Origin: a virus
Lineage: Duplodnaviria > Heunggongvirae > Uroviricota > Caudoviricetes
Length of the DNA stretch: 5,460 bases
IMG/VR virus record: IMGVR_UViG_2778261570_000010
Location: 1-5,460 of that record
Strand: one strand, 5' to 3'
Position 1 is the stretch's first letter, and each line of letters starts with the position of its first letter. Under the pieces are notes generated by a model. The model searched no databases, was not told where the DNA came from, and worked only from the letters and a program-made list of their open reading frames with translations. Made by a program: the position numbers and the translations under genes. Below are positions 250 to 5,324 of the stretch, one piece after another.

Positions 250-1008
250 TCAAGTGCCTTTCCTGGTCCAGCCATATTTTTTGAATGCAGGCGCCGCTTC
301 ATCGGTTTGTAGCCATTCTGCAAATCGACGGGTTTCATCATTTGCATCCTGACGTACTGTAATGTTCATATCACGCCATATCACGTAGTCTGGCGCTATT
401 TCCACGACATCACCAATTTCTGGATTACTGGCTGCCCAGTCAGCCCAGGTTATCCAGACATCTGCTCCAGGCTGATTCTCAAGAGCCTTACGTGCAGTTC
501 CGCTATTGGGCGCATATAAAATAATATTTTTTCGGATTGCGGCGACAGTTTCTATATTCCCTTTACGTCCAGCAATATCTTCCCAGACGCCAGTGCCTGA
601 TGTATTACTGGTACCACCACCATCATTAACAATTACGCCAATCCCAGGTCTGGTCAGGTCGTCAATACTCCGGATATTTTTAGGATTACCTTTCTTTACC
701 AGTAAAATACTTTTTCGCAGATAAAGAGGCTGAATATCTTTTTCACTGAAGCTGTCTTTATGGTCCCGAATGATAGCCAGAGCAGATTGTTCTGATGCGC
801 CAAACAAGATATCTGCATTTTTTTTGGCATCTTCATTCCATTTGTTCTGTGGGCCGTAATGAACGTTCACTATAATACCTGTTTTTTCGGCATAAAGTTT
901 GGCTGCATCAAGCAAGGCTGTATGCGGGCCACCAGGACCATACAGATTGATATCAGCATAAGCAGCAGAAGACAGGAATATTAAAAAACCTGCCATTATG
1001 TTCCTCAT
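250..1008 (-). CDS. Periplasmic substrate-binding protein, ModA-like (type-2 PBP, oxyanion-binding family), with N-terminal Sec signal peptide
   Basis: 252-aa ORF with ATG at 1008-1006, preceded by AAGGAG and a 6-nt spacer. N-terminus MRNIMAGFLIFLSSAAYA followed by DINLY looks like a signal peptide with an AxA cleavage site. The ADILFGAS segment and the C-terminal FKKYGWTRK resemble ModA motifs (PADLFISA, FKRYGFTIK) as I remember them. The gene looks more AT-rich than the replication genes. Confidence 0.75.
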   Translation of the reverse strand: MRNIMAGFLIFLSSAAYADINLYGPGGPHTALLDAAKLYAEKTGIIVNVHYGPQNKWNEDAKKNADILFGASEQSALAIIRDHKDSFSEKDIQPLYLRKSILLVKKGNPKNIRSIDDLTRPGIGVIVNDGGGTSNTSGTGVWEDIAGRKGNIETVAAIRKNIILYAPNSGTARKALENQPGADVWITWADWAASNPEIGDVVEIAPDYVIWRDMNITVRQDANDETRRFAEWLQTDEAAPAFKKYGWTRKGT

Positions 1009-1172
1009 AAAAAACTCCTTTTATTGGTTATCATGAAATAAAGTTATAAACACTACAAATAATATATATTACATCCAGATAAACTTATCCGACTTTACCT
1101 CGTGCATAGCTTGTTATTTAAAGTCAACAAAATAAGGAAAATTATACGCATATTGAAGAGTATAAACCTTAC

Positions 1173-1200
1173 ATGTTGATTACATTTTTGTAATCAACAT
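1173..1200. promoter_or_regulatory. Perfect inverted repeat ATGTTGATTACA-tttt-TGTAATCAACAT (12-bp arms, 4-bp spacer) in the AT-rich region upstream of the binding-protein gene; candidate regulator binding site
   Basis: Read directly: 1173-1184 is the reverse complement of 1189-1200. It sits about 165 bp upstream of the start codon at 1008, in a roughly 250-bp AT-rich non-coding stretch. No flanking T-tract that would make it an intrinsic terminator. Confidence 0.4.
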
Positions 1201-1259
1201 CCTGTTTGGAATAGCCAGCCTTTAATGGATAACTATTTCTGACAATGCAATGAGTATAA

Positions 1260-1738
1260 TCAAGTCCATCTTCCACTGAGAATTTGAGGCGGCATGCTTT
1301 TTCCGGCTCTTGCCGGATATCCGTAATTGTCCATAATCTGCAGATTTATACCTTCTGCATGACCTGTCAGCGAAAATTTGTCCGGTGTTTCTACGGGAAT
1401 GACATCAAAAGTTACACGCACTCGCGTTACCGTGTAGACCTACTTTCCTGCACTTGCAAGATCACAGTGGTGTAACCGTAACAGGAATTTATTCTCTGGA
1501 CCGGCAGTAAATCCCTGAGTGGCGTGGTTCCCATATCAATTTCCCGCCAGGCAGCCTCCATTGCCAGCGTACAGGCTGGAGCCATGACCTGCCCTTTAAA
1601 TCTGGCCCGACCATCCCACCGGACGTGTTCTTCTCCCCTGAACTTAGGTACAGTCATCTCCAGTGGCACAAAAGTGTCAGCGCCATAATTTTTGACCGTT
1701 ATCGCGCTACGGATATTTTGTTGACTGGTGAAAATCAC
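1260..1738 (-). pseudogene. Frame-disrupted ORF remnant of unknown function: GTG-initiated 103-aa frame (1427-1738) continues in another frame down to a stop at 1260-1262
   Basis: The 1427-1738 minus ORF ends at TAA 1427-1429, but a second minus frame is open from about 1439 to TGA at 1260-1262 and encodes protein-like sequence (…VTFDVIPVETPDKFSLTGHAEGINLQIMDNYGYPARAGKS…). Two consecutive protein-like frames separated by one frame change suggest a frameshifted gene. I do not recognise the family. Confidence 0.35.
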
Positions 1739-1867: not shown

Positions 1868-2509
1868 TCATTGCCCGGACTTCCGACAAATCCCGGCAAC
1901 CATATCCCGGTGCTTGTTCAGCTCCCGCAGCGCGGCGCAGACTCGCTCCCACTTCTGGACATGACTTTTCGCCCGGCGCAGTTCGCGGTTTGCCATATGC
2001 AGCGATGGTAAAATCAGGCCATTCGCTCGCGTTTCAGTAAACGATGGCAACGATTGCACAATATCAGCCACAGTTTCTGTTTTAATATCTTCCTGTGTTG
2101 CAGCTTCCTGTGCTGGTAAATTACCGCCCGGCATGCAGTAACGAAATTTACCGTTCTGATTAACGCGAATCAGACAACCTTTGCTGATTGCCATTGCCAG
2201 TGATGAGTTCACCCTGCGGGAAGTAATTCTGAACATCAATGCAAGTTCATCAGCAGCTTTAGGACCATGCCGTTCTATCGCCTCAATCAGCATCTGCGCT
2301 GTCACTTTCGGTGCCTGTGTCACAGTGTCATTTTCGTCGCTTTTTTCATTTGTCAGCCACCACATCGAGCCTTTGTTATCTGCCCACCCCCGACGCTTCA
2401 GCTTCCACAGTTCGTTAATCGCTTCATCGCGCGTCATTCCCAGACGTGCTGTAACTTCCTGTGATGAGGCTTTTCCCATCGCTTTCAGTGCGTCAAAAAC
2501 AGTCTCCAT
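1868..2509 (-). CDS. Prophage protein of unknown function with a winged-helix-like N-terminus; possibly DUF1627 family
   Basis: 213-aa ORF with ATG at 2509-2507, preceded by GGAGG and a 6-nt spacer; stop TGA at 1868-1870. The N-terminal METVFDALKAMGKASSQEVTARLGMTRDEAINELWKLKRRGW looks like a small winged-helix DNA-binding fold. The DUF1627 assignment is from memory and unverified. Confidence 0.7.
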   Translation of the reverse strand: METVFDALKAMGKASSQEVTARLGMTRDEAINELWKLKRRGWADNKGSMWWLTNEKSDENDTVTQAPKVTAQMLIEAIERHGPKAADELALMFRITSRRVNSSLAMAISKGCLIRVNQNGKFRYCMPGGNLPAQEAATQEDIKTETVADIVQSLPSFTETRANGLILPSLHMANRELRRAKSHVQKWERVCAALRELNKHRDMVAGICRKSGQ

Positions 2510-2541
2510 AAATTTCCTCCCGGTAAAAATTACTTCTCAAA

Positions 2542-3207: not shown

Positions 3208-4036
3208 GGTTTACCCCCTTGCTGACTGGTTTAACCTGCGCCCTGACGTGATTTACGTGACGGGCGAATTTCTGCTCCCACTGAACCTGCGTGAACACTT
3301 TGCCCTCATCGCTCCAGTAATCCCGGAATGCGGCAAGTTCAGCAGGTGTAAATTCCGGCTCCGGCAGAGCCACTCCCCACAGAGCCGCCCGTCGTCGAAA
3401 ATCCCGTGACGGATGCCAGCTATCGGTCATCGGAAATTTTCCGATGGGTTCGCTCAGGCCATCCAGGAATACGGGTGGCACTGCCTGTAACGACAAAACT
3501 TCCTGCTCACTGGTCGGAGCACTCTCGCGTGCGTTATGTGTGGGGTTTAGATCTTTGGGTTCCTTTGGGTTCCGTGATCCGTTTTTGGGTGTCTTTGATG
3601 GAAAATTTGGGTGTCTTTGGTTATTTTCCATGCAGCTAAGAGTTCCGTTTTTGGGTCTGTTTTGTGCTGAAACATAACCATTTTCGGTACTGTTTTTATT
3701 AACAGTACCAATTTTACCCACCTTTAAAGACTCCCGTTTTTGGGTGTATTCAGGCTCGGCAACACTTTCTTCTACACCGATAAGTCGGTACACTACGATT
3801 TGCTTTGTTCGGCCTTTTCTCTCACCGGTATCAACAATTAACCCAATCTCCATCAGGTGTCGTAAGCTGTCCTGCACAGTCTTTTTGTTCAGTTCCGTTA
3901 CTTCTGCCAGGGCAGATACAGACGGGTATGCACACAAATCGGCACCGCACATATCAGCAAGCCAGGTCAATACTGACTTACTGGATGAACTGCCGGTTTT
4001 CACCTTTTTAGCCCATCGTAGTGCATCGATACTCAT
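2996..4036 (-). CDS. Replication initiator (O-like): N-terminal HTH DNA-binding domain, low-complexity linker, C-terminal DnaT-like ssDNA-binding domain
   Basis: Start chosen at ATG 4036-4034 (MSIDALRWAKK…), preceded by AGGGG and a 5-nt spacer. The longest ORF begins at a TTG at 4111 with no SD. The C-terminal region (GKFPMTDSWHPSRDFRRRAALWGVALPEPEFTPAELAAFRDYWSDEGKVFTQVQWEQKFARH) closely matches the C-terminal domain of E. coli DnaT as I remember it. The linker has repeated PKNG motifs encoded by the iterons. Stop TGA at 2998-2996. Confidence 0.8.
   Translation of the reverse strand: MSIDALRWAKKVKTGSSSSKSVLTWLADMCGADLCAYPSVSALAEVTELNKKTVQDSLRHLMEIGLIVDTGERKGRTKQIVVYRLIGVEESVAEPEYTQKRESLKVGKIGTVNKNSTENGYVSAQNRPKNGTLSCMENNQRHPNFPSKTPKNGSRNPKEPKDLNPTHNARESAPTSEQEVLSLQAVPPVFLDGLSEPIGKFPMTDSWHPSRDFRRRAALWGVALPEPEFTPAELAAFRDYWSDEGKVFTQVQWEQKFARHVNHVRAQVKPVSKGVNHAAAPGDTASRAVQEIRAAREQWERENGFILDGNGVEAVGTHGGGLFEPLDPEERGRTFEALDCTDWCDD
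3551..3752. other. Putative phage origin of replication: iteron cluster (core TTTGGGT, longer form CCGTTTTTGGGTGTCTTTG) plus AT-rich segment with a 9-bp inverted repeat, inside the O-like gene
   Basis: Direct repeats seen at 3554-3560, 3564-3570, 3579-3597, 3606-3619, 3645-3663 and 3734-3752. AT-rich stretch at 3664-3730 contains GGTACTGTT-ttttat-AACAGTACC (3686-3709). The layout (iterons plus AT-rich region in the initiator's interdomain linker) mirrors ori-lambda inside gene O. Confidence 0.55.
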
Positions 4037-4773: not shown

Positions 4774-4856
4774 TTAAAACACCTTTATTGTTAGTCATAA
4801 CTAACAAGATAGATGTTAACAAAAACATAGTCAATACGATTTAGCATTAGCTAACT
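4774..4856. promoter_or_regulatory. Divergent dicC/dicA control region with two 14-bp palindromic operator candidates and a candidate leftward promoter
   Basis: Palindromes TTAGTCATAACTAA (4791-4804) and TTAGCATTAGCTAA (4841-4854) read directly. On the minus strand: -35 TTGACT (plus 4834-4829), 17-bp spacer, -10 TATCTT (plus 4811-4806). The first palindrome overlaps the predicted transcription start of dicC; the second ends 2 nt before the dicA ATG. Confidence 0.5.
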
Positions 4857-5286: not shown

Positions 5287-5324
5287 ACCACATCAATTAT
5301 GTTAGCTATAGCATACAAAATCAC

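Follow-up and report, generated by a model that had tools for sequence, protein, structure and literature searches.

Introduction

In E. coli K-12, the response regulators HprR (YedW) and CusR recognise one and the same sequence and bind very few sites (PMC8249747); HprSR and CusSR are regarded as near single-target systems. HprR is activated by H2O2/HOCl via HprS, CusR by Cu/Ag via CusS (PMC8249747, PMC9302797, bioRxiv 10.1101/2021.09.09.459708). A box for both regulators, CATTACAAAATTGTAATG, is located 87-70 bp before hiuH (PMC9302797; bioRxiv 10.1101/2021.09.09.459708). In Pseudomonas, CusR, CopR and CzcR bind ATTACATnnATGTAAT, with CTGACAn5GTAAT as the consensus for CopR (PMC11195947). A 2026 study of EDL933 reports that HprR is needed for colonisation by EHEC O157:H7; paa is not mentioned in its main text (PMC13064566).

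The adhesin Paa, named AdfO in prophage CP-933O / OI-57 of EDL933, is an adherence factor that serves as a marker for STEC of high pathogenicity (OI-57, prophage CP-933O) and for porcine ETEC. In the literature, we found neither a description of a Paa/AdfO promoter or regulator nor a report that links Paa/AdfO with HprR, CusR or copper.

Here, we study a palindrome upstream of paa in a stretch of viral DNA of 5,460 nt (the window, i.e., the whole stretch that was analysed). This stretch represents the early region of a lambdoid prophage from pathogenic E. coli, with a dicA-like repressor, dicC, ydaT, O- and P-like replication genes and DUF1627. Matches that span at least 80% of the window are found in 556 complete genomes, and phage records of the PPompW/Stx2a type match as well. 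The features discussed are collected in Table 1.

Table 1. Features of the paa promoter region, with positions in the window; the strand is left empty where none applies.
Feature	Position	Strand	Basis or remark
Perfect palindrome, 12-bp arms and 4-nt spacer	1173..1200		sequence
Predicted HprR(YedW)/CusR-type response-regulator box	1178..1195	-	GATTACAAAAATGTAATC; 15/18 positions equal to K-12 hiuH box CATTACAAAATTGTAATG
Third, direct half-site TGTAAGGTT	1165..1173	-	11 bp downstream of TGTAAT half-site; overlaps would-be -35 position
Consensus -10 hexamer TATAAT	1141..1146	-	starts 41 nt from palindrome centre
Block homologous to K-12 hprR-hiuH intergenic promoter (AAACAG...box...TGTAAGGTT)	1165..1207	-	local alignment
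paa (AcfC-family adhesin Paa/AdfO)	250..1008	-	gene served by the promoter; RBS AGGAG at 1015-1019 (minus)
Junction of paa promoter module and truncated 3' end of pixH-like pseudogene	1208..1214		homology limits
pixH-like fimbrial pseudogene remnant, frameshifted	1210..1674	-	85.8% nucleotide identity to plasmid pixH

Results

A non-random palindrome upstream of paa

The original prediction described a perfect 28-bp palindrome in an AT-rich region, about 165 bp upstream of the start codon of a binding-protein gene. Reading the sequence confirms the inverted repeat, i.e., ATGTTGATTACA-TTTT-TGTAATCAACAT. The gene is paa, whose product has an SBP_bac_11 fold, and the palindrome edge at 1173 is 165 nt from the A of its start codon at 1008. 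The setting is likewise as described: the GC fraction is 0.26 over 1001-1200, and no other part of the window is as AT-rich as that around the palindrome. When perfect palindromes are required to have arms of 12 bp or more and a loop no longer than 10 nt, the window holds two (1173-1200 and 107-130), compared to 0.007 expected per window (300 shuffles). That is, the palindrome is non-random. It is identical in 576/611 E. coli records (53 bp compared, at least 99% identity), and about 42 viral contigs of the prophage type have the identical palindrome too; the prophage lineage is so uniform that this says nothing about selection.

As RNA, the palindrome folds into a hairpin of about -14 kcal/mol (z = -2.3 vs. 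shuffles) with no U tract behind it. Only 3/12 stem pairs are G-C, and neither strand has the T run of an intrinsic terminator. The terminator scan made no call that overlaps 1173-1200, in agreement with the predicted lack of terminator features. A terminator or RNA hairpin is thus unsupported by both fold and scan. Known RNA families do not account for the palindrome either, since Rfam gave just sok at 1-61 and one chance match elsewhere. An integron attC site was rejected by inspection (wrong order of the core sites, site far too short). Binding sites of FNR, CRP, TyrR, LexA, IHF, LysR-type regulators, EvgA, UvrY/GacA and HapR, compared by eye, each seem to misfit in spacing or orientation.

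Several further features of the window lie apart from this promoter. The second perfect palindrome (107-130, CCGATATGGGAATTCCCATATCGG, 12-bp arms, no spacer) is located between the end of paa and hok/sok; it could represent the structure at the 5' end of the hok mRNA, or a site of another kind. The sok antitoxin RNA (RF01794; 1-61, minus strand) scores 58.3 bits against a gathering threshold of 59 and runs off the window end, and hokD lies just past the window in a related genome. About 40 nt past the paa stop, a G+C-rich hairpin is found (196-213, ATGCCGC-N4-GCGGCAT, no T run behind); the homology of the paa module between prophage and plasmids stops right after it. Within the O-like replication gene, three exact copies of CCGTTTTTGGGT (3579-3590, 3645-3656 and 3734-3745, plus strand) with degenerate TTTGGGT repeats between them are probably origin iterons.

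The palindrome centre resembles the HprR/CusR box of hiuH

Boxes of the HprR/CusR class consist of inverted (C)ATTACAA/TTGTAAT(G) or TGACAA/TTGTCA half-sites around a 2-bp centre, 18 bp in total. Such a box is present on the minus strand at the palindrome centre, reading GATTACAA-AA-ATGTAATC in the same inverted 8-2-8 geometry as the hiuH box. Among the three positions that differ from hiuH, an inner T-to-A change breaks one symmetric pair. Given the few sites in K-12, the affinity of HprR/CusR may be sensitive to these three changes.

The similarity extends beyond the box. We aligned a 50-nt segment of the K-12 hiuH promoter, i.e., of a validated target promoter, to both strands of the window. 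The best local alignment is the block at 1165-1207, with 34/44 identities and a score of 22, while shuffled sequences score 11.0 +/- 1.3 (maximum 17, 0/300 reach 22). The K-12 hprR-hiuH spacer itself reads GAAACAGCCTGGTT-CATTACAAAATTGTAATG-CTGC-TGTAAGGTT; the cusR-cusC spacer reads AAAATGACAATTTTGTCATTTT, followed by TCTGTCAC. A hiuH flank, GAAACAGCCTGG, is also retained in the copy on plasmid pE105-3.

From these likenesses we consider it likely that the palindrome centre is a site for an OmpR-family regulator of the HprR(YedW)/CusR type, within a hiuH-type promoter that drives paa. The original prediction had proposed an operator for a regulator that is not encoded in the window. In substance this fits, because the centre resembles an HprR/CusR box and both hprR and cusR are chromosomal and lie outside the window. 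The proposed geometry does not hold: conservation covers the central 16-18 bp and the third, direct half-site on the paa side, not two 12-bp half-sites.

Promoter architecture

We compared the promoters of cusC, hiuH (chromosomal and on IncF plasmids), paa, the plasmid operon DUF305-YncE and four further paa-type genes, anchored at the box centre. All of them arrange their elements alike: two inverted half-sites are followed by a third one in direct orientation at +11, and a -10-like hexamer is placed 41-42 bp from the centre. The third half-site TGTAAGGTT is identical in the hiuH promoters of K-12 and plasmids and in the paa promoters of the plasmid and of the homologues L268 and L270. In the two DUF305 promoters it is near-identical (one reads TGTAAGGTC); homologue L272 (TGTCAGCTT) and Providencia (TGTAATATT) have diverged further. 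The counterpart in cusC is TGTCAC, 11 bp after TGTCAT. At +41 or +42, a -10-like hexamer is found in cusC (TAAAGT), hiuH (TATCCT) and DUF305 (TAAAAT) as well as in L268, L272, L270 and Providencia.

The -10 and start-site assignments for paa were made by inspection. Transcription is predicted to start near 1134. No recognisable -35 accompanies the TATAAT hexamer at 1141-1146, and a promoter scan that needs both hexamers made no call for the paa promoter. In its third half-site, its -10 spacing and its missing -35 consensus, the paa promoter thus has the same context as the known targets. Since a TATAAT -10 stands there without a -35, the promoter should depend on an activator.

The mechanism that we propose reads as follows. 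A dimer of phosphorylated HprR and/or CusR would bind the inverted ATTACA/TGTAAT half-sites, whose centre (1186.5) is at about -52 from the predicted start, with an extra contact at the third half-site at about -39 to -31. Sigma-70 RNA polymerase would then be recruited to the perfect -10 (TATAAT, read from 1146 to 1141) without the help of a -35. The signals for paa would be H2O2/HOCl via HprS and Cu/Ag via CusS, such that the Paa adhesin would be expressed in response to oxidative/chlorine and copper stress in the gut.

Circumstantial expression data come from published RNA-seq of EDL933. In rumen content vs. M9-glucose, Z2053 (acfC, i.e., paa), cusC and cusF show log2FC values of 2.4, 3.5 and 4.0, respectively; in rectum content, paa is likewise induced, but without cusC (PMC8524897 supplement).

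As a separate observation, one viral contig carries an insertion sequence end (TGAACCGCCCCGGGTTTCCTGGAGAG...) that replaces the sequence from TATAAT onward, so that the box is cut off from paa.

Conservation among paa copies and homologues

Plasmid copies of paa (about 86% identical) share the region from about 190 to about 1207-1212 with the window. Beyond it, paa has four different upstream neighbours, namely a YncE-DUF305 operon, a Tn3 transposase fragment, an IstB-like fragment and, in the window, the pixH remnant (pixH'). The inner core ATTACAAAAATGTAAT is identical in all compared plasmid copies. Taking the paa homologues into account, the core TTACA-N4-TGTAAT shows no change in any of the ten paa-type sequences in which it is present, and none across six paa-type lineages including Providencia. 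Core and third half-site together are kept in the prophage, the four plasmid contexts, L268, L272, L270 and Providencia alcalifaciens, while the spacer and the upstream flank vary; the proteins of the latter four homologues are 86%, 86%, 68% and 67% identical, respectively. When anchored at the centre, all copies follow the pattern [variable flank] TTACA-N4-TGTAAT-N5-TGT(A/C)A(G/T); a -10-like hexamer then starts 41-42 nt from the centre.

For Providencia, the chance of an exact 15-mer match is about 1e-4, as estimated from base composition. When the upstream regions of E. coli and Providencia are aligned globally, the cores do not fall in register, so that this homology lies only in the motif block and its spacing. 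The upstream regions of the paa homologues of E. albertii, Citrobacter, Edwardsiella, Salmonella, Yersinia and V. cholerae are unrelated; the box is thus not intrinsic to the gene family. A BLAST search with the hiuH promoter against plasmids returned the plasmid hiuH copies and missed the paa promoters, for which it is too insensitive.

A scan of metagenomes for TTACAAAAATGTAAT-N5-TGTAA returned more than 120 mostly unrelated AT-rich contexts, the three known paa types among them. In nine marine metagenome contigs, TTACAAAAATGTAAT-N5-TGTAATC is followed by a TTGATCT-N2-3-ATCAA palindrome, and this family may be a conserved regulatory region of some marine bacterium. In a scan of viral contigs, the 19-mer ATTACAAAAATGTAATCAA occurs in paa prophages and also in unrelated phage ORFs, where it codes for a conserved ..YYKNVIN..; this is a coding coincidence and no regulatory site.

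Related boxes on plasmids

Via a weak BLAST match, we found a second box, AAAATGACAAAAATGTAATC, which precedes the DUF305-YncE operon adjoining paa on plasmids. Its array reads AAAATGACAAAAATGTAATC-N4-TGTAAGGTT with the -10-like TAAAAT at +41. The box, together with TGTAAGGT, is present in L004 (about 7870-7905, minus strand) and L280 (about 2495-2530, minus strand) and is of a hybrid CusR/HprR type. This suggests a small mobile set of copper/oxidant-responsive genes.

On IncF plasmids from E. coli and E. marmotae, a near-identical hprR-hiuH-msrPQ cluster including the box is present (L283, 3302-6245), which is a plausible source for the capture of the promoter onto plasmids. One and the same IS-like end, TTTAAGTGATATTGGTTGTCTGGAGATTCAGGGGGC, is found at about 60-95 of L268 and at about 7940-7985 of L004, in each case 30-60 nt upstream of a different box, namely that of the paa-type gene of L268 and that of the DUF305 operon of pE105-3. 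This hints at IS-mediated movement of these promoter modules.

Outer arms of the palindrome

Only in the prophage lineage are the outer arms fully complementary. On the left, the outer 6 bp of the arm change from lineage to lineage (TTGTAC, CTGTGC, CTGGGT, CTGGGC, ATGAAC, CTATAC etc.), while the outer 5-6 bp on the paa side are the variable N5 spacer and the first T of the third half-site. Since the distal outer 6 bp of the plasmid copies are not complementary, the 12-bp arms are specific to the prophage lineage. If hiuH and the plasmid copies are taken as outgroups, an ancestral distal flank of about CCTGG(G/T)(T/C) results, where the window now reads GATGTTG. That is, 4-5 changes are clustered within 7 nt, and each of them creates complementarity to the spacer CAACAT opposite. 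Independently, L268 has reached 10/12 arm pairs.

Template switching at quasi-palindromes is a known mutational mechanism, and the clustered changes would fit one such event. The outer arms are probably a by-product, either of this kind of event or of chance. Chance may account for them because the flank is hypervariable in every lineage and ATG/CAT may be ancestral. Nothing indicates a functional role for the extra symmetry.

Junction with the pixH remnant

The pixH-like remnant is located between DUF1627 and paa. Intact plasmid pixH is homologous up to about 1210-1213 and, from the other side, the plasmid copies of paa and the hiuH promoter up to about 1207-1212; unrelated sequence takes the place of the last 12 or so codons of the remnant. 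In other genomes, the NCBI (PGAP) annotation runs the pseudogene through the palindrome (...DVDYKNVINM*, stop at 1169-1171). This frame is fortuitous, since pixH homology already stops at about 1210, and we likewise rejected the palindrome as fimbrial C-terminal coding sequence because PixH homology ends before it. Compared to plasmid pixH, the pseudogene of the prophage (1210-1701, minus strand) is truncated at both ends.

The paa module, its plasmid copies and the hiuH homology all end near ATAC/ATTC, 12-20 nt upstream of the core. We read this shared edge as the inherited end of a captured hiuH-type promoter rather than as a recombination site. A transposon or MITE end was also considered and rejected, as no inverted partner of the module's left end is present in the window or in five related loci.

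Discussion

Alternative explanations

The sequence similarities reported here can be read differently. One could regard the element as a decayed relic, i.e., a hiuH-derived promoter to which HprR/CusR no longer bind usefully, with paa transcribed constitutively from TATAAT or controlled otherwise, e.g., by H-NS, which would silence AT-rich DNA. This would fit the 26% GC content of the region and the box, which departs from that of hiuH at three positions, and the -10, now a perfect TATAAT where hiuH has TATCCT, could relax the dependence on an activator. We nevertheless consider such decay, including the H-NS variant, unlikely: there is no usable -35, and the half-sites and the third site have stayed invariant while spacers, flanks and coding sequence diverged down to 67% protein identity, as purifying selection would give. 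Quite improbable, in our judgement, is a different winged-helix response regulator with similar half-sites, be it a plasmid-borne PcoR, SilR or HprR copy or, as further candidates, CpxR or OmpR. The direct repeats TGTAAT-N5-TGTAAG do resemble tandem sites of the OmpR family, IncF plasmids have their own hprR-hiuH-msrPQ, and related regulators share GTAAT-type half-sites to the extent that they cross-bind one Pseudomonas palindrome (PMC11195947). Still, the closest match by far, flanks and spacing included, is the HprR/CusR promoter of hiuH, and EHEC prophage hosts always have hprRS and cusRS but not always pco or sil.

The symmetry of the full 28 bp could be explained by a dimeric repressor or operator protein, possibly phage-encoded, on two half-sites ATGTTGATTACA, and this symmetry is indeed perfect and non-random. 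We hold this to be very improbable, given that no other lineage has the same outer 6 bp in the left arm and that a search of the window for the 12-bp half-site yields no other copy, even with 2 mismatches. Operators of the DicA/cI type would be repeated at the early promoters of the prophage; no such repetition is seen in the window, and its DicA/DicC-type operators (4778-4817 and 5296-5321) are unrelated to the palindrome. We can hardly credit, either, a recombination or attachment site, the end of a mobile element at the cargo junction, or a hairpin terminator of the pixH remnant. It is true that the pixH'/paa junction is close by, that the four upstream contexts break at points no more than about 10 bp apart and that the RNA hairpin is stable to the extent given above. 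But where the original prediction had suggested a recombination or attachment-related site between phage and cargo DNA, the nearest junction connects one cargo piece, the pixH remnant, with another, the paa module, at a distance of 9-14 bp from the palindrome. Furthermore, the core is also present on plasmids, in Providencia and at the chromosomal hiuH of K-12, where no such junction exists. The palindrome thus neither behaves like an attachment site, i.e., as a homology boundary that is absent from uninterrupted relatives, nor is an inverted-repeat partner of the module end found. A terminator is opposed by the lacking U tract and terminator call, and the 12-bp stem is missing from the plasmid copies.

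Implications

Returning to the hiuH-type promoter with an HprR/CusR-type box as the likely reading, a broader picture can be drawn, which we put forward tentatively as possible rather than probable. Here, mobile DNA would have extended the HprSR/CusSR regulon in pathogenic E. coli: a captured hiuH-type promoter would stand before Paa/AdfO in EHEC prophages and ETEC/STEC plasmids and a related box before DUF305-YncE, with adhesion induced by HOCl/H2O2 or copper. If this is true, neutrophil-type oxidants (HOCl/H2O2) or copper would induce adhesion, and part of the colonisation defect of an EHEC hprR mutant could run through paa. The prophage-specific extension to 28 bp may additionally alter affinity or regulator preference.

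A working box would provide a concrete signal for adhesin production, i.e., copper (pig feed, phagosomes) or the reactive chlorine and oxygen species of inflammation. It would add a horizontally acquired virulence gene to two regulators that are thought to have nearly no targets beyond their own loci, and it would connect with the 2026 report on HprR in EHEC O157:H7 colonisation (PMC13064566). It would also illustrate how a chromosomal stress promoter is copied onto plasmids and prophages, where it rewires cargo genes.

Comparison with known systems

The hiuH promoter is like that of paa in 15/18 box positions, the 8-2-8 arrangement, TGTAAGGTT after a 5-nt spacer, the AAACAG flank and the distance to the -10. 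The paa box differs in its outer pair (G/C instead of C/G), in the inner T that is now A and in arms that are perfect over 12 bp. Furthermore, the paa promoter has a consensus TATAAT, serves a horizontally acquired prophage adhesin and not hiuH-msrPQ, and has no divergent hprRS adjacent.

The CusR box of cusRS-cusCFBA (AAAATGACAAnnTTGTCATTTT) shares with paa the spacing of the half-sites, the third half-site at 11 bp (TGTCAT-N5-TGTCAC) and the -10-like hexamer at +42. Its half-sites are TGACA/TGTCA, whereas those of paa are TTACA/TGTAA. The left half AAAATGACAA is exactly common to the CusR box of cusC and the plasmid DUF305 box.

In Pseudomonas, the palindrome ATTACATnnATGTAAT is nearly the same as the 16-mer ATTACAAaaATGTAAT of paa and serves as an activator site for copper/zinc two-component regulators, of which several paralogues bind it. 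Genus and regulators differ from those considered here, and no third half-site is described for CusR/CopR/CzcR (PMC11195947). The pco genes resemble paa as mobile-element genes under CusR-family control by a palindromic box, which for paa is a prediction; they differ in that pco confers copper resistance while Paa is an adhesin or solute-binding protein, and in the half-site variant. Compared to these systems, the paa box would be a further example of an established operator class, placed before a new target gene that was acquired horizontally.
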